Positions 1,705 through 56,494 of a DNA stretch of 64,000 nt are shown piece after piece. The notes under the pieces are model-generated. The model saw nothing but the letters and a program-made list of their open reading frames with translations, searched no databases and was not told the DNA's origin. The first letter of the stretch is position 1; every line of letters begins with the position of its first letter. Position numbers and translations under genes: made by a program. This stretch comes from Nemertoderma westbladi (lineage: Eukaryota > Animalia > Xenacoelomorpha), in NCBI GenBank assembly GCA_032718475.1, contig JAUCBJ010008942.1:29682-93681 (forward strand). The letters are read 5' to 3'.

Positions 1705-2303
1705 TGTGACGGGATCCGAGAATCCCGATTTATCCGGTTGGTTATCTTATTTATGCGTCCCCGCCATTTGTGTGTGAAAAGAGTTCTGATGTTGTTGATT
1801 TACTCTGACTTTTCTTGGTCCGTATGTATAAATATAGAATATAATCGAATAAAGCATAAGCGCAGTTGATTGATAGGTGAATGAGTAAGTACCGGTAAAA
1901 TGGTTGAATAATGATGGCGGCAGTGGACGGTAATAAGAGTTCCCGTTCTGCCCTAACTAAACCGACTAACTAAGTGAATAAGTGAGGAACAGTAACTGGT
2001 AATATATTGCACTGATTTGGCCGTATTACATTACTCAGCGGATGCCTGCCCCCCATTGGCTAATAACCCACTTCTCGCCTCCTATCCCTCTGGGAGTGTT
2101 TTCCCCCCCGCTACTGTCACTCTCTCTCCCTCGGAGGTGTAACCTCTAACCCCCATTGTGTGTGTGTCCCTTTTGGGGTTTGTCGCCCCGTTTATTGGGG
2201 TGATACGAGGTTGATTGGCAATCAACCTCGTACTCCCAATATTGCTTAAAGGCCCTACTTGGCTAACTTTATGGGGTGGTTAGCGGAATTGAATTCGCTA
2301 ACA
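1705..2303 (-). repeat. 3' LTR of A1 (599 bp)
   Basis: TGTGACGGGATC...GCTAACA termini shared with the LTRs at 49807/56504 and, in reverse complement, 35283/42202; PPT adjacent at 2304-2312. Confidence 0.9.
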
Positions 2304-3019
2304 CTCCCCCCCATGCTATCTTCCCGGTGAGAAGATAGCATCCACCTCTAGTGCGCTACAATTCCGCTGGATCCCGATCTACTATCGGGTGTGGGGTGGA
2401 ATTATTTTCTTTGGAGCCGGCTTTCCAGGCCGCTCCCTATGGGTATGATATCGCTACCCCGTATTGGTGCAACTCTATCTATCTTGCACCAAGACATCTG
2501 GCGTCCCGTGTTGGGCCGATTGTGGACTTCTCTCACACAATTTTTGTTTCCCCAACACTCTCGCCACTCTAACTCCACTCTCACCCTGACTTTCCTTTAT
2601 TCCTCTTTTACTTCCGCTCTAATTCTTGGACCCCCTTGTCCCTCATTCTGCCTCTTACTTCTCCCCCCCCCCCCACACTTGAATTGCACCCGCACTCTCT
2701 CCACGCTATTACTCAACCCCTATCTCACCCACTTACTCCTGACGAGTCTCACCCCCCTCCTGTGCCGTCGCACTCAAGAAGTGTGATGTCGTCCAATGTC
2801 TCGTCTGTGATTCACAGTACCATAGTCAAGTGGTCCCCAGTCCCAGTAGCTAATTGAGAAAAGGTTATATGGCTATAGTACTTACTTTGATTATATTTTC
2901 TTGCTAAACTAATGATTACTACATACGTACATATTAATTGCACTTTTAGTTATTTATTATATTTACTTAGGAGTTCGCACTTCTCATGCGGCACCTTCCA
3001 GGCGTCCCACTTCCAACTT

Positions 3020-4453
3020 CTAGTTCGTTCCACCTGACTTCGGGAACCATCTCAACTCCTTCCCTCTGTTGTCCTCCTCCCTTGGTCGTTTCCTGGCCGC
3101 TGCCGCTCCCTTGGTCTTATCTCCCTTCAGGCTCCTGACCCTCGCCGCCACCTCTCTACTGATCCTGGTCATCGACTCCTTGGGCGCTGGTGTTATCAGC
3201 TCCCGGTATCGCTTCGCGGCTGGCCCCTCCGAGTGGCCCTGTTGTCTCCCCCTGGTGGCGTCCAATAGGATCACTTTCATCGCCCGCGGCACATGCTCCG
3301 CCAAGAAATCTCTGAACTCCCCTCTGTTCTGTGGCGTCTACCTGTCCAAATACTTCTGCATATTTATCACCCCGGCATACGACGCCGTCGTCGCTACCTC
3401 CTGGTAGGTAAATGGAAGTCTCCGTTTCAAAATCTCCATGTGGTCTTCCTGATTGATATTAAAGAAGCCCCACCGGAACTCCTGGGCCTTCATACGTTGC
3501 CGAGTCATGGCCCCGATGTCGGCCCACTCCTCGAAGATCCTAAACTTCTCTTCATCGTCCATCCAGTCGCACTGGCGTCCGTAGTGCCCCCGGAAGTTGC
3601 ACTTCGAACGGCGGTTGTGCAACCGTGGACACGCCCCCATCCTGTGGCTCGACTCGCGGCAGTAGAGACAACTAGTCCCTTTCTGGAACCGGTACAAACA
3701 GCTCCTTTCCTGGTGGGTTTGCCTCCCACAGTAATCACAGCCGAGCACCAATGTCTCCAGCCCCACGTCGTCTTTCATCCCAAGTGATCTCCGCGGTCTG
3801 TGGAGTCGCTGGTAAGTGAACTTCTGGACGTTAGCATCCCTGTCCATGTCTATCTCCTCGCCCCTCCTGGGCATCGTCTCCCCGAATACTACCCGTGGTG
3901 CCGTTCCCGGTTGCATGCCCAACCTGATGGTGCTCCCCGCGAAATCCATCGCCGGCTCCTCATGCACCCAGGCCCACTTGCCGGGTCTATCCCAGAAGGC
4001 TCTCGCCCCACTGGCCGTCACCACCCTCCCGCCAACCCAGTCCGTGTCCGAGTGGCCGATCCTCCCGATGGGCGGCATCTCTCCGAACTCGTCGTCATCC
4101 TCGTCCTCCTCTGGGAGTGGCTCCAACCCCGGTATCCCGGTGGACCCACTGTGTCCCTTCCCACCTTGGCTCTTGCCCGTGACTTTCCATCCTTCCAGCT
4201 CCCCTAGCCTCCTTAGCGGGTGATCGCCCTCGGCGCCCGCTGGTATGGGCGTCACCTGCGATCCCGATGTCGACTGTTTCGGTGATCCCACCGTCCACCC
4301 TAATTCTCGCCCTAGAGACTCCCCCGAACTCTCTGATGACGTCCAACGAAGTTCGTCTAAGGCCGCCTGTTCCTCGAAGCCGTAGCTCTGCGCTCTAGCT
4401 TCTTCCTCCCTTTCCTCTGCCTCTCTCCTTTCCTGTCTAGCGATTTCTTCCAA
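3020..4453 (-). pseudogene. A1 accessory ORF in env position: triple Cys/His zinc-knuckle protein with basic C-terminus; 5' truncated, one in-frame stop
   Basis: ORF 3338..4453 contains CDYCGRQTHQERSC, CLYCRESSHRMGAC and CNFRGHYGRQC. It continues in the same frame past a TAG at 3338-3340 into ORF 3020..3304 (ARKRPR). The frame stays open upstream to the ~4490 junction. Confidence 0.75.
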
Positions 4454-5676
4454 TCGCTTCGCTTCGCTTCCGTTAGCTCTCGTTGGCTTCGATAATTAAC
4501 CTCTAGGTATAGGACACTCCGGGTACATAACGTAGTGCTTATAGTTTAAGACTATAAGCCGCCAGATGGTGGCATTTCCTTATCTGGACAACGCAACATA
4601 CTTACTATTACTTTATTGGTTTCAAATACCGTAATTTCCTGTCAGTTTGTAAGAACCAGAAATTCTAACTCCTTGTTAGTCTGGTTCGTAAATTTCTTGT
4701 TAAATTACCCTAAAAAATTGTAAGTGTAACTTGTTTATTGTTTATTTAGAGATTGTGTAATCTCAACCCGATACGTAAGTAATTTGTAGTGATAAGTAAC
4801 TTAGTTAAGTAGAATTATCAGTATTAGTGTCTAACAAGTAGCACTCCACTGAGAGCGTCCAGCCTCTGTATAGTGACTTCTTACACAGAAATAATAACAT
4901 TTATTTCAAATATTGTCAAAACCCATTACGGGTATATATATATATATATATTTATAAATTAATTCAATCAGATTTATAAATTAATAGGCCTGTTATACAT
5001 CAATTAGGTCTTAATATCAGTTGAACTACTGCTTACTATCAGTAATAAAGTAAAGGGAAGTAATCCCTAAAATTGGAAAATCAGTTATTATTAAATAATT
5101 GACATTACCGGTATTTACGGTAAGCTTATTATATTTATATAAATTAGGCTAATACCGGTATTCTGTTACTGATCCGGTCAGGACTATACTGGTCAGGTCA
5201 GGTCCCCAGATCCTGCTACCACTATGGCAGTAATGTGGTACTACCTGTAGCTGTCAGCCCAGTAGGGCAGGCCCGATAAGCATAGCCTATTCATTATTTA
5301 GTTGATCAAGAGTGGGTTGGTTCAGCCCCGTCAACTAAATAAGTCATTGAGGGCTATAGCGCCTAGGGCACCATTGAAGGCAAAGGCTTGATACGCATCT
5401 GCATTAGAGATAATACAAGCCCCGCCCTGTCTATACTGGATGCTCCTCTACCAGTGTTAGGTAATCTAACCCAGGAGGCACACTTGGTTCAGGGTGTAAC
5501 AAATGGACCCCTACAGTCGGCAGCAGGGCTGTAGGCCATGGATAGGCGGAAGGTAATCAACCAACGGCTAGACATGCTGACAAGGTCGGTGGAAGGTAAT
5601 CAACCAACGGCGACCTACTGCGAAGACGCTTGTAGGAGTTGCGACCACAAGCGGTTTACCCCTGCAACTGAAAGAT

Positions 5677-8525
5677 ATGAGTATGAGAACCCTCCAGGAG
5701 AAATACCGGCTCGGTCGTCGCCCGGGTCAACAAGGACCGCGTCCCTCAGTGGTACACCAGGCTGGGGTCGATAAATTGGCTACTGGAACAGAAGACAGAG
5801 AAGAAAGAAGAACCAACCTGTTGAAATGTAAAAAGACACTAAAGATTGCTACAATGAACGCACGCACGTGAAAGCACAGAGCAAACAGGGTGACATGGTC
5901 GCTCTGGCAATGGAATATAACATCGACATCATCTGCATCCAAGAACATCGGATTTGTCATGAAGACACTGCCATGAAGTACAATGACATTGGAAATGGAT
6001 GGACGTTAGTAACAAGCTCAGCAGTAAGAAACTCGGCCAATGCATCAATTGGTGGAGTAGGAATTCTGCTAAGCCCATTTGCACTTAAGACCCTAAACAA
6101 CATCGAATCTATAAATTCCAGGGTTATGATCGCAACATTTGATGGGAATCCCAAGACAACAGTTATATGTTGCTACAGTCCAACCAATGCATCAGAGCCA
6201 GAACATGCAGTCAAGTTTTATGAAGAACTGACTGGACTTATTAAGGACATCCCGAAACACAATGTTAAAGTCATTGCGGGTGACCTGAATGCGCAAATTG
6301 GCCCAGAAGACATCAAGGGTTACACCTATAACACCAGTTCTAACAGAAATGGGTACTTACTCTTAGACCTAATGGAAGAATGTGAATTGATACCAACAAA
6401 CAACACATTCGAAAAGAGTAAGGGGAAGCTATGGACCTTTCAATACCCTAATGGAACCAAAGCACAACTGGATTACATCCTTATAAACAAAAAGTGGAGA
6501 AATAGCATGATCAACTGCGAGGCATACAGCTCGTTCAACCTAATTGGTTCGGACCACAGAATTGTGACTGCAGAGATCAGACTCAGTTTGAGAGCCAGCA
6601 AATCCAGGACAAGCAAGCAAATCAACTATGACTGGGAGAAACTCAGAACTGACAATGCTGTAAAGGATGCTTATACAGTAGATGTTCAAAACCGCTTTGA
6701 AGCACTTCAGTCAATGGATGAAGACCAATCCACCGATTCAATATACCAGAATATAATAACAGCCCACAAGGAATCAGCTAAGAGGCATATCCCCCAGAAA
6801 CCTAAACGAAAACAGTATGTGCCATGGCAAAACTCTGAGGTTACTTGTAAGAGAGAAGATCTTAAGATAGCCTACAGAGTTAAAACCGAACAACCAACAA
6901 CCGAAAACATTAACAAGGTTGAGAAAGCTAAGGACGATCTTAAATTGGCCTACAACATCAGCCAGGAAAAGTACATACAGGATAAAACTGAAGCAATTAC
7001 AACTGCTCACATACAGCAACAATCAAGACTTACCTGGCAAACTGTAAATGAGGTATCTGGTCGGAAAAGTTGTGTAAAGGGGCGCCTCAAAGCCGATAGT
7101 CCTGAAGAACGTGTTGGGAAGTGGAAAAATCACTTCAGCAACTTGCTTGGGCAGCCACCAAACATCGAGGTCAGCCCTACAAGGAAAATATATGACAAGA
7201 CACTACCTATAGAAACAGGGGACTTCACACCTGCCGAACTCCAAAGAAGCATTAAAAGCATGTCCAATAATAAAGCGAGTGGATTAGATGAAATCCCAGC
7301 GGAGGTATGGAAAACCGGAGTGCTAAATAGACCATTATTGAATGTTTGCAACCGGATGTTAAAAGGGGAAAAGCCACCACCAATTTGGACTAAAGGTCAA
7401 CTAAAGCCTCTCCCCAAGAAAGGAGACCTCGGCATACCAACAAACTATCGTGGGATCTGTCTGCTTGTGGTAGCTGCCAAAATATACAATAAAATGATTC
7501 TATATAGGATTAGGCCTCACATAGAGAAACTACTGCGTAAGAGCCAAAACGGATTTCGACCAAGTAGATCAACAATAGCTCAGATACTTGCACTACGGAG
7601 ACTGATTGAAGGAATTAAGTCAAAGAATCTCCCCGCAGTCATGACTTTTGTGGACTTCAAGAAGGCATTCGACTCCATCCATAGAGGTAAAATGCTTGAA
7701 ATCCTAAGAGCTTATGGAATACCAGAAGTAATTGTTGCTGGCATTGGATTGCTATATTGTGACACAGAAGCGCAGGTACTCTCACCAGATGGTGAAACTG
7801 AGTTTTTCTCAATCCTGGCTGGCGTACTGCAAGGTGACACATTAGCACCATTACTATTTGTAATTGTGCTGGATTACGCAATGAGGACGGCCACAAAGGG
7901 TGAAGATCTGGGATTCACACTTCAAGAACGCAGAAGTAGTAGATATCCGGTAACTACAGTCACAGACACCGACTTTGCGGATGACATCGCCCTGCTCTCT
8001 AATACGCTAGAAGATGCACAGCTTCTACTAAATAAAGTGGAGAGGGCTGCTAAGGAGGTTGGATTGCATATAAATGCTACCAAGACCGAATTCATGACCT
8101 TTAATGTTGATGGAAACTTGACAACCATTGATAATAATCAACTAAGGCAGGTCGATGACTTCCAGTACCTTGGATCATGGATAGAGAGTAGCAAAAAGGA
8201 TATAGAAGTTAGGAAAGCAAAGGCTTGGGTAGCTCTATCAAAAATGGATACCATCTGGAAATCAGATCTCTCCAGGCACCTGAAGACCAAGTTCTTTCGA
8301 GCCACAGTGGAAAGTGTATTTTTATACGGGGGTGAGACCTGGACACTGACTAAATCACTTGAACAACGAATTGATGGTTGCTACACAAGACTACTAAGGG
8401 CAGCCCTAAACATCAGCTGGAGACAACACATGACAAACGCCGAGCTTTATGGTACAATACCACCTGTATCAACCACCCTCCGTGAATGCAGATTAAGATT
8501 CAGTGGGCACTGCTGGCGAAGTAAA
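5677..8525 (+). pseudogene. LINE ORF, 5' part: AP endonuclease + reverse transcriptase
   Basis: APE motifs IATMNART, CIQEHR, AGDLNA, LDYIL, SDH; RT motifs NYRGI, QNGFR, FVDFKKAFDSI, GVLQGD, FADD, YLG. One-base frameshift at ~5868. Interrupted by B1 at 8526. Confidence 0.92.
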
Positions 8526-9706
8526 TGTACGCGCTTTTGAAGACCTTTAGCAGTTTAACCTGCCAAAATTTATATGTCTTTTGGTTTATAAATAGACTTT
8601 AGAAAATGACAAATATTTAATACCAATAAACACAACATTAGCCGAAGCCAGCCTAGTGCGCGTCCATTCACCCGCTGGATATACCCGGGAGACTGGATTC
8701 GGAGGGCTTAGATTGTTATTGCAGTGTAAGCTTACTGTATTATTCGATTGATCGTTAATAAATAATTTCTGACCAATATTATTCACTTTCGGGAAATATT
8801 AACAGTTCCTTTAGGACGTGGCGCTCTATCTAGGTAAACAGAGATATGACTTATACTAAACACAACGGTTAGTCGGTAAGGCTTATGATTCACGTATGAG
8901 GCGCATTCTTTAGGAAATGGTTAGTTATCAGCAACAATCATGCACACTACCGGTACCACACAATACTGCACACTAATCTGCCGACCGTCAATGAATTTTA
9001 TCATATATAAAGAGAACAGCAATTGACTCATGTAGTGCCTATCAAATAGCATTAAACTCACTACAAACCACAATAATATAAGTCGCAATCGCTATATGTA
9101 ACCTGTCTCTCTAACCTGTAGTGTATCAAGAAAATTGGGAAATTTGGGTTATTTATCGATGTTCTCCAAGTAATAATATTCAACCAAACAACAGTAAAAA
9201 CCATTAAGACGGTAGGTTAAGATATGATATGACAATGTACTGATAATGTAACAATGATATGATCTGCCGATAACAGTTATACGCTCTATAATCTAAGCCT
9301 ACTAATGTTTCTTCTAAAGTCTGAAACGAATTGACTCCAGAGCCGGTGTTCTTGGCCTAGATAGAAACAACAAAACAGTATCAAGAAAAACAGTAAGACT
9401 GAACACTCCTATCACGATCTGTAGAATATCTCCACATCGACAATAAAAATTGCCCTGATTGGCTGTTAAGCTAAACAAAGAACCATGTGTCCAACGGCCG
9501 TTTCCATGCCAGCAACCAGCTGTTAGATGTCGTAATCTGAATCATCAAGGCTACACTGTGCTAGAGGATTTGACGCATTGCGGGTTTTGTGCCTTGCCAT
9601 GTCCGCCAAAGCACACATATAGAAGAATGACTTTTATGTCCGTTAAAACACCTACAACGGTACTTTGCGGGCAAGGGGACTGATTATATCCGCAAAAGCT
9701 TTTACA
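8526..9706 (-). repeat. 3' LTR of B1
   Basis: TGTACGCG...TTTTACA on +, direct repeat of 23068-24248; short PPT (GGGAGCGG on -) at 9707-9714. Confidence 0.95.
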
Positions 9707-9783
9707 CCGCTCCCAGAAAATGGGATTCAAGTCTATAAATATACAAAATCACAGTTTCTAATATACGTAAATACTCTAAACAG

Positions 9784-11358
9784 TTAGTCTTTCATGCGCG
9801 GACGGCGTTTACGCAGTTTTTTAAAGCTGGCCAGAGTCTTTTTCTCTTTGGGGCGAGCCACTTTACAAGGAGGGCTATAACTCCTAGGTGAAGGGTGCAA
9901 TATGATTGCATCAGAGGGTGTAGGATTATGGTCGGTGTATCCGCCAGTCGAAGTGCCGGGTTGATTGACATCAATGTCGGGGGAGAGGGATCTAACGGCC
10001 TTGAGAGCGCGTTTTAGGACAGCCGCTCTTACGGGTCCTTTACGAGTGGTCTGAACGAGAGCCGTGGGTGGACCATAGGCAGTCAGAAACTTCCTGGGTT
10101 TAATGGTTCTTTCCAACTCGCGTTCGCGGGCTCGGTATTCGTAAGGCCGTCGATATACTTCCTGTAACTCGGGGTGTGAGTTAACAAATAAGTCTCCATA
10201 GTCCGGATCCTGACGGATAAAATTGATTAGGTTATATGAATGAAGGTCGCTAGGATTAACACTCCTGAGAAATTTGCGTACGAACTTGGTTGAAATACAT
10301 TCTCCGACGCGCTTCAGTAGTTCGTAACTCGATATGCGTGATTTCTGTTCGACAGAAGCGAATAGATAAGGATGGAACGCATAAACACCTTCGTAAGCGC
10401 GTCCAGGATAATAACGATGGCGCAAATCACAATGTAAATCAGCGTTCGCTTCCCAAGCTCTGATGTAACGTAGTGTGATCATTTCATCTACGCTTTCCAA
10501 ATCGTGATTGGCGTGTCCCTTTAGTTGACAATGGTGACATTGAGTCATAAATTGAGGGCAAACCGCAAAAATATGCAAATTATTGAGTCTGCAATATGCG
10601 CAATAAATTTCCATCGTCGGTTGTTCTTGGAAATAGGAACAGCGGACGTTTGTGTCCTTCAGTTTGTTGGTTGGGTCTAGGGCATTCGTCACAATAACAC
10701 CAAAGACGTACGTCCTGTAGAGGAAACGCGGGTGATCGTTCTCCAGTTTCGCAATATTCTTCCATTTGTTCAAAACTATCCGGGATAACAGGTAGTGGAC
10801 GATCGGCGGTAAGATACATCATAGTGAAATAGAGCTGTTTGAGTTCTACCATGGGGTCATGATGTATACCTTGAGGATATAGAGTCTCGAGGTTCTGCTG
10901 ACTGGCGATGTTGAGATAGGTTTCTCCCAAAATTCCAGGTAGTCGTTGAAGTCGATGCGTTTATCCGGTTCTTCAACGTTTTCTCTTTCCAGTCTGTTAC
11001 GAATAGAATTTTCGTGTTCTATTCTAGGTTTTTCGTTACGACTCCGCTGGGTATGATATTTAAATAGAACCATTTCCCTTTCGGTGTCTACATCGTCCAT
11101 ATCATGTAAATCGATAGGATGGCCGGTAGTTAAGAAGTCCATATATGTACCATTACGATGCGTATAGCGAGCGGTGAATTTTCGATAGTCCAATTCACGC
11201 GTAAGTTGCTCTTGGGACATCGGCGGTTCGATTTAACGACCATCGTCCTCCGTAATGGTTGGATCGGCTTCACCGCGTATCAAGCTATCCACAAATGCTT
11301 GCAAAGGTAGAGTATATCGCTCCCTGATACCAAGATCATCTTCTATCAACTCCGTCAT
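9784..11358 (-). pseudogene. B1 accessory ORF in env position (~525 codons): zinc-knuckle protein with basic tail
   Basis: Overlapping ORFs 10846..11220, 10580..10930 and 9784..10773 plus an upstream MTELIEDD segment join via one stop and two frameshifts. Motifs: CDEC...H...C, CAYCRLNNLHIFAVC, CHHCQLKGH; tail KKLRKRRPR. Homologous sequence is present in B2. Confidence 0.75.
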
Positions 11359-12984
11359 ATCTGCTATTTGGGTTTATTAATATTATAAGGAGTTTATGTT
11401 TAGGCGAGCGGGCGTCGCTGCCTACCTTTCTTTGCCCCCGGACAGTGGGATTCTCAGCGCCGATGTACCGTCGTCGCGGTGTTTACGCCAACCTGTAGCA
11501 ACAGCACGACAACGATAACCGGCACAAGTCACTCCACTGTCCGTCCCAAAGGCTTGGATCCACTTTAGGTTCTTTCTATAGGAGAGTTGGGTTACTTTCA
11601 CAATTGCGACTAGCTACTGTAAACATACTTTAGCAGTAACATTCACCTATAAACGCATAAATTCCACACAACTGTCACCAATTGTACACATACAGGCCAT
11701 TTGTCCGTTAGTCAGTGCCTTCCAGAATGTCATGTTATTACTGTGTATCCTTGGATACTAACAGTGTGCTATGTATTCTCTATGCTATGCAATGGGACAA
11801 GCTTTCTATTGTTCTTTTAACTTGCTTCTAATTCTAGCGTGGGTGTTGCTATGGTGACATTATGGAAATCTAGCGGTAGAATTAGGATAATTCTCATGCA
11901 TACAGATCTGGAATGCTATTTAATAGTAATTCTTTAATTGTCAATATCCTCTCTATGTATGATTTTATTAATTTTTATCGGCTATTGACTATATGTTGGA
12001 GATTCTCGCACTCTAATACGCTCAATAGGATGAATAATCTCCGCTCCCATGATCTATTAATTAATGGAATTTTGGGAATGTTATAAATTGCACAAAATGA
12101 CAATTTATGAAATTCATTTAAGATATGAATTTAAATTTATTCCCGTGAATTTTATTATTTGATGGTAAAATTGACACAATTTATTCCAGAGCATGTCTGG
12201 GGACCTAGGATCCTTAATTCTATAAAATTATCTTTTAAGAGTATCGGTAAGTGCTGCGATATCTTAATTGACTAGAAATTTTAACGGATCTATATTTTAC
12301 AGATTTTAATAAATATTAAATTAATATTTAAGATGGGCACCGATTTATTCCAGAACTTGTCTGGGGACGTTAACCACTGATTCTAGAATTTGTCTTTCAA
12401 GTATATCGGTGGGTGCCGCGATATCTTAATCGACTAGAATTACAGATGGTCAAAAGGTTTAACAGATTTATTTGCATTTTACGCTACTGTTATAGGGACA
12501 TCACACTACTATATGTATTATTTAATATAAGGTAGAAGAGCAATATCGCACGAAGCAATGTCAGTGTGAAGAGGCAAGTCGTTTTCAAGGTCTACCCAGA
12601 GCTTGGTTTAGCCGAGACACGAGGATCTGAACTTTGCATTCCTAATACTCTGCCTACCAATAATACTTGAATATAGTAGTGGCTTTATTGTACTTTAATA
12701 AGTACGGATATTTCATCTTACTGTAGTCTCGTGTTTATAATATAATACGGACAGTAAGGAAAGAGAAAAAGAATTATTTCTCGCCGTCACACTAAATATA
12801 TATTATATATGTAATTACGTAATAAACACTAATATATTGCACTAATCTACCAAATAATCTAAAATAACATTCTACTAAATAAAATTAAATAAAACGATTG
12901 TAATAAAGTACATAATAACGTTCACATATAAAAATATAATAAAAATAGATAGAATAATATAGTCATGCACCCACTCCAGACGTA

Positions 12985-15900
12985 TCACGTTGGGGAGTCC
13001 CTAGATGTTTGAGGAATTAGGGAGGTGGTCGTGGGAAGAGTGTCTGGCCTTCCATAGTTTCCGGAGAGTTCTCTGTCTCTTTCCAGTAAACATAAACGAC
13101 CAACTGGGCGGTTGAGTTGTTGCATCTCAAAGATTATGCCTGGCTTCTTGAAGTTACGCCGCATGACGACGAGTTCTACCGAGCGTACTAAACCATCATC
13201 CGAGATGTGAGTCTCGATGATACGACCTGTCTGCCACCGTTTACGTGGAAGGTCTGAATCTACAATAAGCACCATATCTCCGGCGCTGACGTTTTCTTGC
13301 TGCGCAAACCACTTAGTTCGAAGTTGTAGCGTGGGCAGATAATGTTTCTCGAAATGGTCAGCGAAACGACGGGATAGCAACTGCATAAGTTGCCAAGTTC
13401 GACGGCAGTATTCGTCTCCGTCGGCAATCTCCGATCGTGGGAGCATGGCTACAGGTTTCTTCAGTAGGAAGTGCGCGGGTGTTAGCGCTTCCAGGGAATC
13501 GGGACTCGATGAGACTGGCATAAGCGGTCTCTCGTTGAGATAGGCAGCTATTTCCTCCATTAACGTCCGCAAAAGTTCGTCGGTGAGATACGCGCGGCAT
13601 GGCACTATAAAGTGAAATGCGGTCTTGACACTCCTAATTAATCTCTCCCAACTTCCTCCCCACCAAGGGGCGTCGGAGGCGTTGAAGGTCCAGCTAGACG
13701 CTGTTATCCTTAGCTGATCGTCCACCTGTCTTTGGTTCCAGTCCTTCACGTAAGCCTGGATTTCGTTGTTGGCACCAATGAAGTTCGTTCCCTTATCCGA
13801 TCTCATGGTATTACTAGTCCCAAAGCGAGCGATCTGTCGGCGTAAACTTAATACGAAGCTGTTGGTAGATAGATCGTTCACCATATCGAGATGGATGGCT
13901 CTACAAGTCATGCATACGAAGATGACACACCATCTCTTGATTATAGTCCTAGCACGATATACTTCAATAGGGCCAAATAAATCTACACCAGTATTAGTAA
14001 AGGGTGGTTCATAGAAGCTTACTCGTTCCCTAGGTAATTCTGCCTCTCGCTGTGTTAAAGGCCTACTGAATGCTTTCCTACAGGGTATGCAGTTCCTAAG
14101 AACTTGGTTCAGAGCTCTACGGGGTTTATCAAAATAATAGCGAGTTCGAATTTCGCTAAGAACTCGTTCTCTACCAGCATGATAAAGTTTACTGTGAACA
14201 TCTACAATCATCTTGATTTGTACTTCAAGATTTCTAATGAGTATGGGGAATTTAGTGTCAAAGGATAATGGCGTATTGGTGAGCCTTCCTCCAACACGTA
14301 TTAACCCATCTATCATTGTGCTAGAGAAGCGATCCCTTAAGCGCATCTGCGGATTCCTTAACAACAGGAAATACTTATCGGAATCCTCATAGCATTGCAG
14401 GAGTCTCAGTATCTGCTTATTGGTTTCTTCATGCTCCTGGTAACTAATTTTCTCCTTTAGAAATCGGTCGGATGTCTTATATTTGGGTAAATTTTTAATA
14501 ACATGAACTTGCGCAGATGTCAATGGAGCGGTATCACTAATGGTCTTTGTCCTGGAGTAGTGATGATGAAAACATCGCCTTAAATATGTGACGGCTTTAC
14601 AGAGCCGATTCCAGGAACTGTAGTGATGCATTGCTCTCTGCAGCATGGGTGAGAATCCTTGCGAGACATCTGGTATTCCAGATTTCCAATCTCTATCTCT
14701 AATTTCCACAACAGACTTATTTGTGGCGAGGGATTGTGGATCCGAAGCATCGTTTCCGGAAGTATGTAATACAGATAGATCGATAGTCGGTTTAAATAAC
14801 TTCGATTTACTCGCCCGGGTTTTAGGTTTGACTTTCTCCGCTCCCTTGGCTTGTCTAATCTCCGCCGTAGTAAGGTGAGGAGGCCATTCATCCTCTTCCT
14901 TACTCAGGAAGTCGGGTCCACCCAACCAGTCTGGAGTATCTATCAGTTCCTGTGGAGTTGCTCCCCTGGAGGCGATATCGGCTGGATTAATCGTACCAGG
15001 GCAATGTCTCCATTGATCTATCTTTGTGCGACTAAGAATAATAGCTACCCTGTTAGTAACAAAAACGCTGAACTGACAGACTTCATTGGTTATATACTCC
15101 AACACGAGTAAAGCGTCGGTCCAATAAACAGTTTTCTCCAGTGGATAGTCGATTTGTTCTGTTACGTTCCGGCCGATGGCTGTAGCGTATAAAGCCGCCT
15201 TTAACTCCACTCGAGGAACCTTTAACTTGTTGTTAATCAATGCCTTAGAGGTAACCAAGGCGACTTTGATTCCATCCGGAGTTTCGACTCGCAGATATGC
15301 TACTATACCTATTCCCATGTCGCTGGCGTCTCCAAACACATGGAGTTGATAGGAATACGTAGGGAGAACATGACCAAAATATGCACGGGAAATTACAAAG
15401 CTCTCGATGGCAGGTAGAGAATCTTCCCATTTCATCCATTTCTTTAACAGTTCTCCCTTAAGCGGATCGTCCCATGAGTGGTTTTCAAGCCACATTTGTT
15501 GTACTAAACTCCGAGCAATCAATATAACTGGGCTAATAAATCCCAATGGGTCGAAATAAGTGCTCAGGATACTTAAACAAATCCGTTTGGTCCGAACTGG
15601 ATTATCTCGCTGTTTTAGCTGAAAAAACAGGATATCTCTTTCGGTGTCCCACTTCAAGCCAAGCGTCTTGGTTTCTGGAAGATCGTCCTTTATTAAGTCT
15701 AGATCTTTCGTTCCTCAGTCTTCTACCGGTATCGCTTCCAGAAACTCACGGGAGTTGCTGGTGAATTTCGTCAGTCGAAATCCACCTCTTTTCAAACACT
15801 CTACCATTCCTTTCGCGACATCAATGGCTTCTTCTACTGATGGAAGGGATCTTAAATTATCGTCCATGTATATATTACGCTTGATGTTGTCTATCACCTC

Positions 15901-17948
15901 TTTTGAGAAGGCGTCTCGGTTGTCATTCGCAGTGGTCCGCACTTCCACTTTGGAAGGGCTTGATATGATCCCAAAAGCCTGGATGGTCATCCAGTACTCT
16001 ACCGGTTTCTGGTTGAGATCCCCTTCAGGCCACCACAGAAATCTCAGGCTGTCTCTATCTCTATCCAGCGCCTTGACTTGTAAGAACATTCCTTCTATAT
16101 CGGAGGCGAACGCGATGGAATATTGTCTTAATCTTAAAAGTATTCCCAACAAAGATTGGAGTAAGTTGGGTCCTGGTAACAACTCGGAATTGAGGGATTG
16201 GCCCATATATAGAGCGGAGCCATCAAATACGACTCGTACTTCATGGGGTTTACCGGGTTTGGGAACGTAATGATGTGTTAAGTAATACGTTCTCTCAGTC
16301 ACTGGTGTTCCTTCCGGTACTCGCTCCGCGTATCCCTTTGTAATAAATTTCTTCAACTGAGTTTGGTACATTTCTTTAGCTGAAGCATTAGCCGTAAGGC
16401 GTCGATGTAATTGAGCGATTCTTTTCTCTGCCAAGGATTTACAAATCTAGGTTCTCGTTTTCGAAATGGTAGGCCGATTTCATATCTACCTTGGTCCTTT
16501 AAAAAACGTGTAGTTGTTTCCTGGATTTGCTTGGCTCTTTCTTCTTCTATCGATAGGGCCTTATCGTATGAATTGGGCTCTACCAATTCTTGAGTAAAGA
16601 ATCGTACGGCGAGTTCGTCCCGAGTTCTAGCGTTGTAGCGCTCTATCTCATCATTTAGTTCGTCATTGTAATCAATGGGTCCCGATGGGCGAATCAGTTG
16701 ACATAGGTTCACCTGGTTTTTCCAAGTTTTGTTTTCTGTAAGTAGGTCGATTGTGTTCTCTTCATCGAAGAGTTGGTAGATGTTGTCATTATCTGAGGAG
16801 TATGGTGTTCCCTCAGTTAGTTCGTCCACCTCACTGCTCTCCACTTCCCAATCGTTTACTTGGTATATTCGTTCTTGTGGCATTCTCTCTTCGAGAGTTC
16901 TGCGGGAAGGGCCAGTAAAGTACCAACCTATTCTAGTTCTTACCGCATAGGTTTGCAGTGGCTGCGGTTGAGCAGGCCGTTTCTCCAATGTCTCGAGCGC
17001 CTCATGCGCGTTTTGGCCGATGAGTATTTGCACTCCAGGATAATCTGTCTGGAATCGAGGTATCTTAAGCTGTTGGATGCTCTCATCCTCGTCCCAATTA
17101 TAAAGGTCTGCTTGGGTAGTAGCGAAGTTCTTTATAGCCACCATTTTTACCGACCTTATACCTTGTGCTCCTAATTTATCCTGGGGGGTGGACAACACAC
17201 CTACATAGTAATCTGCCGTTAGGGTAGATTTCCAAACCTGCATAATTCCTGACATATTCAATTTAGTCCGGAATTTGGGTTGTCCAGCAAAGATATCTTC
17301 GGCTAGTTCTTGATCGATGAATGTTCCTGTGCTGCCGGAGTCAAGGAGGGCGTTCACTATGTAACTTTTGTTAGGACCATGAACACATACCTGCACTACA
17401 GGAAATTCTCTGATTCCTACGTTGGAAGTTGGAGCTTTCCAAGATGGTTGTCTGGCAAAAGTAGTTGGTGGGCGCTCATTGTCGGTGTCCTTTTCATAAG
17501 TAAGTGCTCGATACACCGCGGTATTGATTAGGTAACAGGATTCGTTGGCGTCGGAGAATTCGTCAGTATAGAATCCTTCCATCTCAGACTCTTGATCAGT
17601 GTCATTTACATCACTGAATTGTACATGTAGTTCGGGCTCACTTACCTGACTCAGGTTGTCTCGTTCGAACTCACTGTGTAACAAGATGTGATGTTTCACA
17701 CCACACTTTGCACACTTTACGTCGGAGTAACAGGTTCGCCATTGGTGTCCTGATCTGAGGCAATTATAGCATAACCGCTTATCCCACATGACTTTATGTC
17801 TGTCTACCAGGGATTTCTTTAGGAATTCAGCACATGCACTCAAACGGTGGGGCCCGTCGCACAGCGCACAGTTTGGTTTGATGTTACTCACTTTACCTTG
17901 GGTAACGTTATGCACTCTCGTTCTTTCTTCGGGCTTTCTTCCGTGCAT
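12985..17948 (-). pseudogene. pol: B1 Gag zinc knuckles, protease, RT, RNase H, integrase (frameshifted)
   Basis: CALCDGPH/CYNCLRSGH/CAKCGVKHH knuckles; LLDSGS protease; FASDIEGMF and YMDD RT; LHVFGDAS, RVELKA, YWTD Pao-type RNase H; H-H-CIPC zinc finger and GVDLFGP/SDKGTNF/GGSWERL DDE integrase. Confidence 0.95.
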
Positions 17949-18019
17949 TCTGTTAGGAGACTGAGGAGGAGTCTTGGCAACCTGTTCTCTCCTATCGTTG
18001 GTTCGAGCCTTGTATTTAC

Positions 18020-21000
18020 TTACGCTTTTTGAGGTTTTGTTAACGTAGTAAAATCGGTCAGTGTCTTTCCCGCTGTCCTCTTCTTGAGAAGCTTGCTTTC
18101 GCCTTCGTCAGTGTAACACACTGGTGTTACTCTTCTCCTAGAAACGGGTTTCTCACTTACCTTATTTTCCGATGTTTTCTCTCTGGACTGCTTGATGAGT
18201 TGTAGTTTTACTTCACCATCTAAGAAGGACATGAGATCAGCCATGGTAGGGCTTCGTCGTTGCTGCTCATTCATATACAACACTTTCTTGTCCCAGCGTG
18301 TACATACTCCACCCTTTGGTAAAGTAGAGACTACGGCTCCAATAACCATGGAACTCTGATATTCATGAGACTTACCTAACCAGTCCAATAGTCTACAGAT
18401 CTCCTGAATCTCATCGGAAAACTCTATAATCCCGCTACTAAGGAAGTTTCGGGGGGCTACTAATTTTGCATACAAATACTTAGCTATGTTATCCTTGTTA
18501 CCATACCTGGTGTTTAATGTATCCCAAACTTGTCTTAATCCATCTGGATGTCCAATAAACTTTAACGCCATTAACTTGGGAGGTCCTTCCAAGCACTTGA
18601 TGAGGAATCTAAGTTTCTCTCCGTTAGATAGTACAGAGTTCTGTATGCATCTTTGTAATATTCATTGAAAGGTAACCATTTCATCTCATCTCCATTGAAT
18701 TTGACGATCTCTCCCACTTTGACCGCTTGGCGGGCTTCTGTTCTAGCCATCTGACGCGTAAAGCTTTCTTGGGCCATCGTGTTATTTAATATCGAATTAT
18801 CGGTATATGAATTTCTCGGATTATTATCAGGTCTATAGGGAATATCATTAACAACAGGTTTATAATCACCCTTAATAGGGTTTGCTATAGGAGTTTCTAC
18901 TTCACTAGCAGTATAGATGCGTGTAGGCTCCACACCTTGCGCATGTGATACTTCAGACCTAACAGGTTGACACAATGTTACTGGGGGTATTGGTATACCC
19001 TTTTGTATATTGACTAATTTGTCGCGTTCTAGCGCGATGCTTTGCTGCACTTCTTGCAATTCTAACCTACTTTCCCTTACTGTTCCCTTAAGTTGGTGGA
19101 CAGTCTCCTGCATCTGTCCGAGCAGGAGATTCATCCCCCGCCGTCCCTCCTCTACCCACTCAACCGCCGAAGCGGGAGTCGCCAACATTGTAGCGGGCCG
19201 ACGCAGGACGACGGGAGACAAATCTTTGATTTCTCTCTCAGTGTCCAGGACAGGGATATTCGCATGGACTGTTCTACCGGGTACAGGCAGTGTGGTACTG
19301 TGTAGAGGGAATTTAGAGTTAAGCTCTGGAAGTACAGGGGTCTCTAGCACAGGAGTGGCTTTGGGAACGACAGGCCTAATTATTTCAGGCTCATCAACTA
19401 TCATAGGGAGTCTTAATAATTTGGTCTGTGGGTTCTGTACTACCTAAGTCTGTGCTAGCTAGTTGTCTTCTAACCGCTGGGGGCAAATCAGGCAATTTGT
19501 GACGGTGAGATGTTTTTCTACGCCTGCTTAGACGAGATCTATTTCCTCCGCCTTCAGGATCAGTGGTCTCGCCTTCCTCCGATGATGTGTATCCTTGGCG
19601 TTTGGGAGTAGATCGACTCATCATCTGCATTTGACTAGCAGTTAACTGTTTATTTATGCAGTCTTGCGTCTCTTGCAGATTTTCCAACTCCAGTTGGGTA
19701 GTCTCCTCAGACGCTCTTCGTTCTGCTTCTGCCACTGCCTTTGCCGCCTTTCTTTCCGCTTCTGCTTCTGCCATTGCCGCTGCTGCCTTTCTTTCCGCTG
19801 CCGCTTTTGCCGCTTCCGCTTCTGCCATTGCTGCTGCTACTGCTGCTGCCTTTCGGTCCTCTATCCGTTTTTTCTTTACTTGTTCTTCCTGGACTCTAGC
19901 GAGGCGGAGTTTTTCATCAAATTTAGCTTGGTTTGCAGCTAACCTTTCTGCATCGATTGAGTCCAACACAAGCTTGGCTCCTTCACTATTGGGGCGAAGT
20001 CCAGCCAGTCGTCTCCTCAACTCTTCATCACCTAGGAAACGTTGATAGTCTGACAGATAGATGTCTATGGCGTCTCTCGTTCGCGGTCTCTTTGCGGTCA
20101 CTTCGCTTTCCACTTGAGAAAAGGTGGCATCGGTTGATTCTTCATAGGTTGGTCTCTCAGCCAGCTGGGATTTCCACTGGGCCGTTTCTTGTACTTTGAG
20201 ACCTACCCGCTGGAACCAAGTCTTGACAGCAACTTGCAGCGACGTGTCCTGTCTTCTTTTGGAAGTTTCCTCAAAGGCTGATAGGATTAGTCTAATGCGT
20301 AGGGTTCTTTCGCGTACTTGATATAGCAGCTCTTTCTGCTCTTGAGGTCCTTGGGGTTGTTGAAACAGTTGTTCTTCTAATCGCTCTAAGGAGCCGAAGA
20401 ATCCCTGCACATATCCTGCTGCCGACCTCTTCCAAACAGCTGGATCCATCGTATCTTTAGTCACTCCCATCCTGTGTATGTCTTCCCAAGTAGCTTCGGA
20501 CAAATCTAACGGGAGTCCGGGTCCGGGAAAGTTCCATTGTGACTCGACAATAGACATCAATTCTTCCCTGGCGTATCCCGCATAACTATCTTGGGTCGCT
20601 CGCTTACTTCTCGCCCAATCGCCTTGGTGTTCCACCACCGCAATCAATATAGTAGTTAGTACTGCGGCAGGAAGGGTGAGAAGGGGATCCGAATAGGCTG
20701 TAGCCGCCATCTTCACTCCGCGTTCGGGGGTCAGCTCTACAGTATCCGAACTACTGGAGCTATCGGGTCGCTGGGAACGAGTTTCTTGACTAGGATGTTG
20801 CTGCTGTTGGACAGCTGCCTCTTGGTTCCGTTTGACCTGGGCCCGAGTGCCGATGATAGACCTACGGTGTTGGATTAGCCTAGGGTCTGATACTACTACT
20901 GGAGGGATGACCTTTCTTTCAGTAGGAGGTGAGCTGAACCCCTTTCTTAATCGCTCCACACTCCTGTCTGTGTCACAGATGGTTGTATCGATTAGACTGT

Positions 21001-21028
21001 CTGACAGGTTTTGCTTTGTGTCAGACAT
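18020..21028 (-). pseudogene. gag: B1 gag with long N-terminal extension (frameshifted)
   Basis: ORFs 19394..21028, 18571..19404 and 18020..18592; KFNGDEMKW and WDTLNTRYG resemble BEL/Pao Gag; collinear with the B2 ORFs from 24654. Confidence 0.85.
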
Positions 21029-22149
21029 ACTTAGCTATACAGTTGAATGCTTGCTGCTATAGTTACAGTTAAAGCAAGTCTAGTAATTCAGTATGACCGT
21101 TGGCCTAGTACCGGTAATTTATTACAGTATATTAGAATACCGGTATACACTTATAATATATAGAAGTATTGTAAACTAGGTTTGTCACAGAGTACCGGTA
21201 TATAATTTTTGCACAAATATATATAAATATATAATAGGCCTATCGTGAATACCGGTATACAGCTGACACTTATAGTATATAAGTATAATTCTGGACTAGA
21301 ATAAATTACAGAATACCGGTATAATTTTAGCCTAAATTTATAGAAATAAAGATAATAGGCCTATCGTAAATACCGGTATATCAATTATTTAAATAATTGA
21401 ATTTCTGAATTTTAAAGGTTACTTAGTTACTTTAACTTACTTTATTACCGTTATTTAAGCAGTAGTCCAACTGATATTGAGACCTAGTTGTTGTATGGCA
21501 GGCCTACTATTTATAAATCGTTTGAGTTGATTTATAATATATATATACCCGTTTAAAATGGGTTTTGTCAATATTTGAAATAAATGTTATTATTTCCGGG
21601 GGGAGTCACTACACAGAAGCTGTGCGCTCTCAGTGAAGTGCTACTTAATAGACACTAAAACAGATAATTCTACTTTACCTAAGTTACTTAATACTTCAAA
21701 TTACGTACGATACGGGTGAGATTAATTCTCTAATTAAAACACAACAAAATATTACGTACGAAATTTTAGGGTAATTTTACAGGGAAACTACAAACCAGTC
21801 TAACAAAGGGTTAGAACTTCTGGTTATTACAACGGACAGGATACTACGGTATTTGAGAATAATAAAGCAGTAGTCAATATACTGCGTTGTCCAGATAGGA
21901 AAAATACCACCGTCTGACGACCTATAGCCGTATCGCTATAGGTACTACGTTATGTATCACGGAGTGTCCCTACCTGGAAGTTAATTACCGCAGACTACCA
22001 GATCCAACGTGCCTATTAACCACTTTACAACACAATACACTGCCTACACACTAATTACTTTCGGAAAGCACTGTACACCAAACCCTAAATTAGGTACAAG
22101 TACTTATTAAAACAGATAACTAGCAGTTAAATATACTTGAACAGTTAAA

Positions 22150-22630
22150 AGATTCCAAAATGGTTAGTTAGTATGCGTTCTAACACGGTAGTACGACTTA
22201 TTCTTTAGGAGGGGATTGACCTTACAGCTCTGGCTGCCCCAACTTACTAACTGGAACTTTATCAGACAAACTCTACACACGCAGCAATCTCTTCAGACCT
22301 AATAATAGCTAGACAACAATCCAGCCTACAAAAATATCTGAGTAATAACTATTACGGTACCTGAACAGACCACACAAACAAACACAGACTAAAACGCTGG
22401 CAGACTACTATCAAGCCTAAATTAACTACAGTATGTGCAGATTCCAAAATGGTTAGTTAGTATGCGTTCTAACACGGTAGTACGACTTATTCTTTAAGAG
22501 GGGATTGACCTTACAGCTCTGGCTGCCCCAACTTACTAACTGGCACTTTATCGGACAAACTCCACACACGCCGCAATCTCTCCAGACCCAACAACAGTCA
22601 GACAACAGTCCAGCCTACAATTATCTGAAC
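22150..22630. repeat. ~190-bp direct duplication in the B1 leader (offset ~289 bp)
   Basis: GATTCCAAAATGGTTAGTTAGTATGCG...CCAGCCTACAA at ~22151 and ~22440. Confidence 0.85.
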
Positions 22631-22801
22631 AATCTGAGCAGACTTACACGTCTTCAGCTCAATATTAACTTACATGTAAATAAAACCGACAGAAATAAGT
22701 AAAATCTCAATAAAAACCAGGGCTGCAGTCCCTGATTAAATACTAAGACCTACCGGTATACAATAATCAAAATCGAATAATACTAATGTACTTATACTGG
22801 A

Positions 22802-23004
22802 AGTACCGGTTAGGACAGTTGGGCCTACAGACCTACAGCAGTACCGGTTCAGGCAGTTAGGCCTACGGACCTACAGCAGTACCGGTTCTGGCAGTTGGGC
22901 CTACGGATCTACAGCAGTACCGGTTCTGGCAGTTGGGCCTACGGACCTACAGCAGTACCGGTTCTGGCAGTTGGGCCTACGGACCTACAGCAGTACCGGT
23001 TCAG
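22802..23004. repeat. 38-bp tandem repeat, ~5 copies, in the B1 leader just inside the PBS position
   Basis: Unit GGCAGTTGGGCCTACGGACCTACAGCAGTACCGGTTCT. Confidence 0.92.
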
Positions 23005-23056
23005 GTTTACCGGTCGACCGGTACTTTCAACTTTATTGCTTACTGCAATAAAGACA

Positions 23057-23067
23057 ATAACTGTTAT
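23057..23067 (-). promoter_or_regulatory. Non-tRNA primer-binding site of B1 (ATAACAGTTAT), complementary to its own LTR
   Basis: Directly abuts the 5' LTR, has no TGG, and is the exact 11-nt reverse complement of the LTR sense sequence at 23812-23822 (9270-9280 in the 3' LTR). Confidence 0.7.
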
Positions 23068-24248
23068 TGTACGCGCTTTTGAAGACCTTTAGCAGTTTAA
23101 CCTGCCAAAATTTATATGTCTTTTGGTTTATAAATAGACTTTAGTAAATGACAAATATTTAATACCAATAAACACAACATTAGCCGAAGCCAGCCTAGTG
23201 CGCGTCCATTCACCCGCTGGATATACCCGGGAGACTGGATTCGGAGGGCTTAGATTGTTATTGCAGTGTAAGCTTACTGTATTATTCGATTGATCGTTAA
23301 TAAATAATTTCTGACCAATATTATTCACTTTCGGGAAATATTAACAGTTCCTTTAGGACGTGGCGCTCTATCTAGGTAAACAGAGATATGACTTATGCTA
23401 AACACAACGGTAAGTCGGTAAGGCTTATGATTCACGTATGAGGCGCATTCTTTAGGAAATGCTTAGTTATCAGCCACAATCATGCACACTACCGGTACCA
23501 CACAATACTGCACACTAATCTGCCGACCGTCAATGAATTTTATCATATATAAAGAGAACAGCAATTGACTCATGTAGTGCCTATCAAATAGCATTAAACT
23601 CACTACAAACCACGATAATATAAGTCGCAATCGCTATATGTAACCTGTCTCTCTAACCTGTAGTGTATCAAGAAAATTGGGAAATTTGGGTTATTTATCG
23701 ATGTTCTCCAAGTAATAATATTCAACCAAACAACAGTAAAAACCATTAAGACGGTAGGTTAAGATATGATATGACAATGTACTGATAATGTAACAATGAT
23801 ATGATGTGCCGATAACAGTTATACGCTCTATAATCTAAGCCTACTAATGTTTCTTCTAAAGTCTGAAACGAATTGACTCCAGAGCCGGTGTTCTTGGCCT
23901 AGATAGAAACAACAAAACAGTATCAAGAAAAACAGTAAGACTGAACACTCCTAGCACGATCTGTAGAATATCTCCACATCGACAATAAAAATCGCCCTGA
24001 TTGGCTGTTAAGCTAAACAAAGAACCATGTGTCCAACGGCCGTTTCCATGCCAGCAACCAGCTGTTAGATGTCGTAATCTGAATCATCAAGGCTACACTG
24101 TGCTAGAGGATTTGACGCATTGCGGGTTTTGTGCCTTGCCATGTCCGCCAAAGCACACATATAGAAGAATGACTTTTATGTCCGTTAAAACACCTACAAC
24201 GGTACTTTGCGGGCAAGGGGACTGATTATATCCGCAAAAGCTTTTACA
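23068..24248 (-). repeat. 5' LTR of B1
   Basis: Direct repeat of 8526-9706, followed by TSD GTAAA. Confidence 0.95.
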
Positions 24249-24253
24249 GTAAA

Positions 24254-35282: not shown

Positions 35283-35868
35283 TGTTAGCGGATTCAATTC
35301 CGCTAACCACCCCATAAAGTTGGGAAACGGCACCTTTAAGCAATATTGGGGAATACGAGATTGATTACCAATCAACCTCGTATCACCCCCAATAAATGTG
35401 GACAACAAACCCCAAAGGGCCGCACACAAAGGGAGGTCAGAGGTTAAACCTCCGGGAGGGGAAAGTAACAGCAGTGGTGGGGGGAAACAATCCCACAGAG
35501 TCGAGGGCGAGAATTAGGTTATTGGCCAATGGGAGCCAAGAAACGCATCCACTGGGTACAATGGCCATAGGTAATGTAGATATATAATATTACCGGTTAG
35601 TGCCCAACATTCAGTTTACGCAGTCATCAGGTGCAGTACGGTGACATTTCGCACCGTCACCGTCACTACAGTACAAACAACATATTGTATTTACCGGTAC
35701 TCAGTTATCTCATTATATCACCATTCAATTATCTATCAACTGTGCTGTGATATCTATGTGTCAACCTATAACAACTCGAACGATAACAACTACCATATTT
35801 TCTTCTTCTCATCAACACGGTGATGCGTAGCGAAACAAAACCGGTCGGGATCCACTGATCCCGTCACA
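35283..35868 (+). repeat. 5' LTR of A2, with TATA-like TATATAA (35581) and Inr-like TCAGT (35611)
   Basis: TGTTAGCG...CCCGTCACA, repeated at 42202-42781; the CATTCAGTTTAC block is conserved in the A3 LTR about 20-30 nt after a TATAA. Confidence 0.9.
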
Positions 35869-35877
35869 GTGCGAAAT
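35869..35877 (+). promoter_or_regulatory. Non-tRNA primer-binding site of A2 (GTGCGAAAT), complementary to its own LTR
   Basis: Abuts the 5' LTR; reverse complement of ATTTCGCAC at 35646-35654. Confidence 0.72.
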
Positions 35878-35899
35878 ACCCAAACTGGAAACTGTGACT

Positions 35900-40593: not shown

Positions 40594-40839
40594 AAAAAAA
40601 AAAAAAATTAATAAAATAAATAAAGAGAAAGAAAAAATAATAGTACGTAGTAGGTACGTAGTAAGTAAGTAGGCAGATAGAAGTTAGTAAGAGATAGTCA
40701 GTAAGAGGGTTTGTAGTACCGGTTAGTAAGGGTTAGTAGAAGTTAGTTAGGGTGTAAGTTGTGTAAGTGTAGTAGTTAATAAGAAGTTAGTAGTAGCAAG
40801 AAGTTAGTAAGTAGTAAGAAGTAAGAGGAAGTTAGTTAG

Positions 40840-52700: not shown

Positions 52701-52712
52701 AATTATTTTTAA

Positions 52713-56469: not shown

Positions 56470-56494
56470 TGTCAGGGCAGCTGGGCGGATCTGA

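Follow-up and report, generated by a model that had tools for sequence, protein, structure and literature searches.

The window analysed here, a stretch of 64,000 nucleotides (nt) of Nemertoderma westbladi (contig JAUCBJ010008942.1, positions 29,682 to 93,681 of the forward strand), is animal DNA packed with nested retroelements. Among them are three copies of one family (A1, A2 and A3) and two of another (B1 and B2) of BEL/Pao long terminal repeat (LTR) retrotransposons. A1 and B1 each hold, close to the 3' end, a frame that is very probably the relic of a third gene (open reading frame 3, ORF3). The part shared by the two frames is a predicted, unnamed domain of ~110 residues, in which three CCHC knuckles are followed by a helical tail (zinc-knuckle and helical domain, ZKH). 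The ORF3 features of the window are as follows.

3020..4495, (-) strand: A1 relic of ORF3, with an in-frame TAG at 3340-3338, open from the junction at ~4471, first Met at residue 140
3374..3763, (-) strand: A1 ZKH domain (104 bits), with the first Cys of knuckle 3 changed to Arg
9784..11373, (-) strand: B1 relic of ORF3, its frame broken near 10900 and again near 10650, with a TAA stop in frame at 11235-11233
10300..10674, (-) strand: B1 ZKH domain, knuckles 2-3 and a diverged tail, with 13 of 20 conserved columns kept and the last Cys of knuckle 3 gone
42782..45104, (+) strand: B2 copy of ORF3, its start at ~35067-35282 separated by the insertion of A2

The A1 frame reads CDYC..H....C / CLYC....H....C / ..KCNFRGH....C, then FEEWADIGAMTRQR and WGFF, and keeps 19 of the 20 columns that are strongly conserved in the family. 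Its helical tail matches a tail-only profile with an E value of 6e-13, and the AlphaFold (AF2) model of the domain is fair, with a predicted local distance difference test (pLDDT) score of 79 and a core above 90. The frame is open right from the junction and its first Met is residue 140; it is therefore cut at its 5' end (~4471), and its length is not a gene length. It ends ~716 nt ahead of an A-type 3' LTR (2303->1705). This 3' side, with A-type sequence and an LTR, is as expected for ORF3, while the integrase side was lost by the truncation.

The B1 frame starts 1.6 kb past the stop codon of pol, which is TGA, and ends 78 nt short of the 3' LTR (8526-9706). Owing to the frame breaks, CDEC..H sits in a frame other than that of CAYC..H....CPQFMTQCHHCQLKGH..WEANADLHCDLRHR..EGVY, the knuckle-1-like CxxC...H of B1 being located at 10652-10699 in another frame. 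Near one of the breaks some other copies differ in length, and this break is therefore not common to all copies. A preliminary description of the two frames, made by eye, had listed their motif strings; all of these are present, except that the CDEC..H of B1 is in a different frame from the rest. The sense orientation and the position near the 3' end (78 nt from the 3' LTR in B1, ~716 nt in A1) were described correctly. A location downstream of integrase holds for B1 and is not visible in the window for A1, and the proposed length of ~480-525 amino acids is reached when reading through the breaks, there being no intact frame and A1 being cut at its 5' end. Both products lack a signal peptide or transmembrane segment, as had been stated (the maximum 19-residue Kyte-Doolittle mean is 0.96), and both tails are basic (13 and 14 Lys/Arg in the last 40 residues). 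Overlooked at that stage were the relic state of the window copies and the existence of a larger gene with an exonuclease upstream of the knuckles, described below. The copies in the window are no longer functional: A1 has a truncated 5' end and an in-frame stop, and B1 is interrupted by a stop and by two frame breaks.

On sequence comparison, the homology of the A1 and B1 frames can be regarded as established. BLASTP aligns them with 27% identity over 63 amino acids (E value of 4e-6), and tblastn searches against the whole window give E values of 2.5e-4 and 7e-4 in the two directions. A domain profile was made from 37 segments of 36 database proteins, without A1 or B1. Among the 1074 six-frame ORFs this independent profile matches B1 at positions 20-122 of 132 with 36.8 bits (E value of 1.5e-10), and the Gag knuckles of B1, A2 and A3 score at most 9.8 bits on it. 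The hhalign comparison gives a probability of 95.8% and an E value of 8e-9. In 1000 shuffles of B1 with every Cys and His fixed in place, the mean score was 8.8 bits and the maximum 26.5 bits, and none reached the real score of 40.2 bits. The knuckle block of B1 alone scores 27.2 bits (E value of 2e-7), with everything else at 9.2 bits or below; the score of the whole domain is ~10 bits higher than that of the knuckles, with FE..AD and SYELL aligned in order. Since the tail of B1 is not significant by itself, the membership of B1 rests mainly on the knuckle block. The alignment by eye thus proved to be real by independent profile, hhalign and Cys/His-fixed shuffles; the similarity extends beyond generic Cys spacing, and the domain is distinct from the Gag knuckles of the window.

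A phmmer search of 1.84 billion representatives, with A1 as the query, yielded 38 proteins at E<=1e-3. Two of these (P0006 and P0007) were dropped as repeats of a generic knuckle, and the remaining 36 match A1 at residues ~245-372. The alignment displays the family signatures CPxLHxxCxxCxxRGH, FExxADxGxxTRxR, WGF and TYxxLL, and some relatives have sub-threshold zf-CCHC matches in Pfam. Pfam gave nothing significant for any of the ORF3 pieces of A1, B1 and B2. A word-indexed protein search returned no match for A1, nor any for B1 at near lengths; the domain alignment, searched at longer lengths, returned three, none of them with Pfam domains. The top Foldseek rows for the A1 domain model, which are not significant, are the zinc finger of Trypanosoma brucei RNase D and Lin28.

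The arrangement of the gene in other elements was obtained from metagenome loci, which were collected with a degenerate DNA pattern for a 16-residue motif (at least 120 loci); the same pattern gave no matches in viral contigs. Among the matches listed, 118 of 120 loci contain the domain at E<1e-3. Flanks were taken from 80 of the at least 120 loci, with the domain present in 78. In 43 of these 78 flanked loci, among the matches listed, an integrase match precedes the domain by 1.3-4.6 kb on the same strand, and B1, with its domain 2.4 kb behind the integrase C-terminal domain, lies inside this range. In most of the remaining 35 the contig is short or ends close to the domain, and pol on the opposite strand only was found in none of the 78, again among the matches listed. 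Peptidase_A17, DUF5641 and RVT_1 are present in all four pol frames scanned. At nine loci (L006, L024, L026, L029, L063, L066, L068, L075 and L077) pol and ORF3 are in phase with one stop codon between them, TGA in 9/9, an arrangement suggestive of programmed read-through in one lineage of BEL/Pao elements. At L005, L008, L028, L044 and L051, the gag-protease start of another copy lies 0.2-2 kb past ORF3 on the same strand, which would be explained either by tandem elements with a common LTR or by circularly permuted repeat assembly.

In the metagenome elements the domain is under strong purifying selection. The median ratio of nonsynonymous to synonymous substitution rates (dN/dS) is 0.093 for 121 pairs of 70-98.5% nucleotide identity (100 loci entered) and 0.068 for 25 pairs in which each locus was used once, all of them below 0.5; since a conserved motif had served to select the loci, these values are biased downward. 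For ORF3 of B1 versus B2, dN/dS is 0.09 over the 138 codons of the C-terminal part, with values of 0.18 and 0.28 in two N-terminal parts. These figures cover only the flanks of ORF3, because B2 lacks the ZKH domain and has 1372 nt of unrelated sequence there. For comparison, the same two elements give 0.05-0.15 for pol and 0.16 for gag. The ratio on the shared parts (0.09-0.28) is therefore not near 1.

The relatives indicate that the gene is normally larger, with a DEDDy 3'-5' exonuclease domain upstream of the knuckles. Seven long database proteins are related to one another in their N-terminal parts. When 11 long relatives were aligned, the resulting profile matched human EXD2 (6k17) with an E value of 5e-7 and the WRN exonuclease weakly; it also matched two proteins that were not included in it, at 1e-13 and 3e-19. 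The match to Pfam PF01612 passes the cut-off in ORF3 of L070 (26.1 bits) and is borderline in P0029. With an iterated profile, an EXD2/RNase D-like exonuclease domain lies ahead of ZKH in 37 of the 48 long frames (those with at least 350 residues upstream of the domain), and none is detectable in the other 11. As a consequence of this exonuclease domain, the likely function changes from that proposed in the preliminary description, an RNA-binding accessory factor acting as a chaperone for a self-priming fold, an export factor or an anti-silencing protein.

The B2 copy of ORF3 matches that of B1 only at 42781-43313 and 44685-45211. Between these segments (43313-44685, (+) strand) lie 1372 nt of unrelated sequence at the place where B1 has its 440-nt zinc-knuckle part, and both flanks are conserved under constraint. 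This B2-specific middle may be the result of a module swap or of an insertion together with a deletion; it has no Pfam match and no relatives among the 120 loci and 38 proteins (jackhmmer). The stretch 41394-41504 of A2 was considered as a relic of the A1 N-terminus and rejected as not significant (blastn E value of 0.008 over 43 nt; BLASTP E value of 0.085).

Our preferred interpretation, with a probability of roughly 75%, is that A1 and B1 are decayed copies of one conserved BEL/Pao ORF3 whose common triple CCHC domain would, by prediction, bind the element's RNA or DNA in single-stranded form; RNA binding is what the CCHC knuckles would imply. The identity of the frames as ORF3 relics, taken by itself, is highly probable. 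A number of observations weigh against this interpretation. The helical tail of B1 alone scores 4.0 bits, a value reached by 12 of the 1000 shuffles, its motifs being weak though in the right order, and one Cys of knuckle 3 is gone in each window copy. No Pfam family, zf-CCHC included, matches the A1 or B1 frame at E<=1. For the A1 domain model, Foldseek found no match in the PDB at E<=1e-3 and VIA-align wide no chain with Z>=2. The N- and C-terminal parts of the window ORF3s, which flank the domain, have no match among the 120 loci and 38 proteins (jackhmmer). Only one of the three A copies (A1) and one of the two B copies (B1) hold the ZKH domain. The position of A1 behind pol is inferred, since no integrase lies upstream of it, and the metagenome ratios carry the downward bias noted above. 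On the side of the exonuclease, only about half of the relatives retain its catalytic acidic residues, and no relic of it was found anywhere in the six-frame ORFs of the window (best E value of 0.34 with the starting profile and 0.45 with the iterated one); a stop-tolerant search of the spacer between pol and ORF3 in B1 and B2, the 3' part of A2 and the region upstream of A1 also gave no exonuclease (best E value of 3.5).

The resemblance of the two frames might be due to chance, with generic Gag-type CCHC knuckles and, for the rest of the alignment by eye, noise. Cys-rich sequences inflate pairwise scores, the pairwise match amounts to only 27% over 63 amino acids, the B1 tail contributes its 4.0 bits and the protein atlas returned only generic zf-CCHC clusters, all below 0.9. 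This explanation is largely refuted, and we consider it extremely improbable: the independent profile separates B1 from the Gag knuckles of the window, the Cys/His-fixed shuffles never attain the real score, the knuckle-only profile still singles out B1 and the whole domain adds its ~10 bits with FE..AD and SYELL in order. Insertion of separate, unrelated elements or of a host gene, in or beside the LTR elements, is suggested by the heavily nested state of the window, by the inverted B-like fragment that adjoins the A1 frame and the loss of the upstream part of A1, by the lack of the frame in A2 and A3 and by the other sequence that replaces the domain in B2. We nevertheless regard it as very unlikely and conclude, as did the preliminary description, that the frames are not stray inserted fragments. 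The colinearity of B1 and B2 extends to both flanks of the domain, within LTRs and 5-bp duplications, with target-site duplications on all three complete elements. The flanking parts of ORF3 show dN/dS of 0.09-0.28, the A1 frame passes without interruption into A-type 3' sequence, both regions belong to high-copy repeats and the same gene order recurs in 43 of the 78 independent loci.

Two further explanations concern the expression and the origin of the gene. The domain could be a C-terminal extension of Pol, made by read-through of a stop codon or by frameshifting and packaged with Gag-Pol. The arrangement of one frame behind a single stop at nine of the 43 loci, with TGA in each case, would agree with this, as would the overlap of the pol and ORF3 frames at other loci and the TGA that also ends B1 pol. 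The spacer of 1.6 kb without long frames between the pol stop and ORF3 in B1 and B2 argues against it, as do the other 34 of the 43 loci, which are not arranged as one frame behind a single stop and range from overlaps to gaps of up to ~2.3 kb, in the same or other frames. As a general account we find it unlikely; it concerns expression rather than identity and may hold for some lineages only. Alternatively, each family could have captured a host exonuclease/zinc-knuckle gene independently, making the likeness convergent rather than an inherited BEL/Pao gene. Repeated acquisition and exchange of DEDDy ORF3s has been inferred among rotifer retroelements in the available text of one study (PMC5408684), the regions outside the domain differ completely among A, B and the relatives, and a module has been replaced in B2. 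Independent capture is decidedly unlikely in our view, with the gene at the same position behind integrase in many diverged BEL/Pao elements and no host-like, intron-bearing or single-copy relative seen.

If A1 and B1 are decayed copies of one ORF3, we can offer a tentative mechanism by analogy, which we consider somewhat less likely than not. The knuckles and the basic tail would hold the 3' end of element RNA or complementary DNA (cDNA), and the exonuclease, where present, would trim the end so held, on the model of trypanosome RNase D, in which these two modules also occur together. In the A and B families of this genome the gene would have a form without exonuclease that acts through binding only. 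A wider and doubtful proposal is that a strongly conserved and so far undescribed third gene is present in the BEL/Pao elements of many aquatic eukaryotes, a gene made up of a 3'-5' exonuclease and a new triple zinc-knuckle domain and expressed in some lineages by TGA read-through of pol. Such a gene might edit RNA or cDNA of its own element at the 3' end, for example by removing host-added tails or evading small-RNA silencing, and the families here might keep a binding-only derivative.

The elements that surround the two frames, with the fragments that adjoin them, are listed below.

8526..24248, (-) strand: B1, BEL/Pao element, with LTRs at 8526-9706 and 23068-24248, TG..CA ends and the 5-bp target duplication GTAAA
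24485-46335, (+) strand: B2, element 75-83% similar to B1, interrupted by A2
35283..42781, (+) strand: A2, internally deleted A-family element inside B2, with 96% identical LTRs and target duplication CGCAT, without the ZKH domain
49807-57032: A3, A-family element with LTRs of 529 bp (100% identical) and target duplication ATAGA, without a reverse transcriptase (RT)
1705..3019, (-) strand: A1 3' untranslated part (3019->2304) and 3' LTR (2303->1705), colinear with A2 41603-42479 and A3 49807-50843
4471..5166, (+) strand: B-like leader fragment, inverted relative to A1 and adjoining the A1 frame, 78% to B1 22009->21308
19394-21034 (-), 24651-26198 (+), 36127-37416 (+) and 55165-56499 (-): coiled-coil-looking frames, with dN/dS of 0.16 for B1 versus B2

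The three complete insertions, B1 (8526-24248), A2 (35283-42781) and A3 (49807-57032), have TG..CA ends and 5-bp target duplications. The LTR pair of B1 is 99.2% identical over 1181 bp, and its pol (18107->12985) contains Peptidase_A17, DUF1759, DUF5641 and Integrase_H2C2 (Pfam). A3 has identical LTRs and yet no RT; it is therefore a very recent insertion of a non-autonomous element. A1 (4471->1705, (-) strand) is an A element of which just the 3' part remains. The inverted B-like leader fragment marks its 5' truncation, and the sequencing contigs of the organism show loose ends at 4469/4471 and a depth dip there. A and B represent two BEL/Pao lineages with unrelated LTRs, as had been claimed: nucleotide comparison within the window reveals no similarity between their LTRs, and the RTs of A2 and B1 are 40% identical. 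In a DNA run of the same organism (X1), 12454 contig pieces fall on 9700-11400 and 3768 on 2900-4700, with 85-100% likeness. With thousands of contig pieces over both regions, the A1 and B1 frames belong to high-copy repeat families. A further run (X4, guessed to be RNA) yielded low-depth contigs only. The coiled-coil-looking long frame listed above, rich in Ala, Glu and Arg, lies upstream of the Gag knuckles in both families and has no Pfam match.

Elsewhere in the window, ORF2 of a long interspersed nuclear element (LINE), with endonuclease and RT (Pfam), is split by the insertion of B1 into 5832-8540 (+) and 24249-24485. The LINE itself appears to lie inside the leader of B2, whose 5' piece would be 4471-5166, giving three layers of nesting. 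A segmental duplication of 2.4 kb (99.7%) is found on both sides of A3 (47365-49807 and 57836-60278), and a 68-bp tandem satellite at 46753-47800. The long open frame at 61338-62900 (+), which by eye has cadherin-like repeats and a transmembrane-looking segment, is probably a host exon. The annotation of the window should read as nested BEL/Pao elements with ORF3 relics, both frames being genuine but dead copies.

Extra genes are rare in LTR retrotransposons and point to steps of the life cycle for which Gag and Pol do not suffice. A nuclease and knuckle gene that is conserved downstream of integrase and as strongly constrained as pol would give a testable handle on the treatment of RNA or cDNA ends, and ZKH would define a new protein domain for annotation. 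The third frames known from BEL/Pao elements are env-like, as in roo, Tas and Cer7 and in the mosquito elements with a chuvirus-like glycoprotein (PMC3118150, PMC13524379). The accessible portion of a BEL/Pao survey has no mention of zinc or of a third frame beyond env (PMC3118150), and that of a 2026 paper on envelope-carrying elements gives only env-like extras for BEL/Pao (PMC13524379). In the full-text literature searched, with Repbase and subscription journals outside the search, no exonuclease or zinc-knuckle third frame is described for BEL/Pao, and ORF3 appears to be undescribed in print for this group. The env-like frames occupy the same slot, from integrase to the 3' LTR. They encode membrane fusion glycoproteins, whereas A1 and B1 have no hydrophobic segment or Pfam glycoprotein match and carry knuckles and basic tails.

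As regards the knuckles, those of Gag nucleocapsid and Lin28 (zf-CCHC, PF00098) have the spacing Cx2Cx4Hx4C in common with knuckles 1 and 2 of A1, whereas two features, the helical tail and the CPxLH link that connects knuckles 2 and 3, are peculiar to the ZKH family. In profile comparisons with the knuckle block, Lin28 (E value of 5e-5) and HIV nucleocapsid (E value of 0.1) match weakly, and the best sequence match of solved structure is the finger of T. brucei RNase D (E value of 8e-6). The latter enzyme (PDB 7c42-7c4c) combines a CCHC zinc finger with an exonuclease of the DEDDy 3'-5' type; it is a cellular protein with one finger and no helical tail, and the match covers the finger only. 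The EXD2/WRN-type exonuclease (6k17, PF01612) resembles the N-terminal domain of the long relatives and is absent from the window copies.

The closest published case, as far as the available text of the report goes, is the DEDDy-exonuclease ORF3 of bdelloid rotifers, which was found in Ty3/gypsy LTR elements (Juno and Vesta) and in Athena/Terminon Penelope-like elements by Rodriguez, Kenefick and Arkhipova (2017; PMC5408684), who proposed that it acts in 3'-end processing of element RNA. By their description it resembles the gene of the BEL/Pao relatives, both being non-envelope frames behind pol with an RNase D-like 3'-5' exonuclease, and the rotifer protein is stated there to have no transmembrane or coiled-coil part (PMC5408684). 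In place of a CCHC knuckle domain, the same available text describes only a Cys-His-Cys motif in Vesta2/5 (PMC5408684). The hosts also differ, being Ty3/gypsy and Penelope-like elements for the rotifer ORF3 and BEL/Pao elements for the ZKH gene. In contrast to the rotifer ORF3, the copies in the window have the knuckle domain without any exonuclease, whereas most of the long BEL/Pao relatives combine the two.

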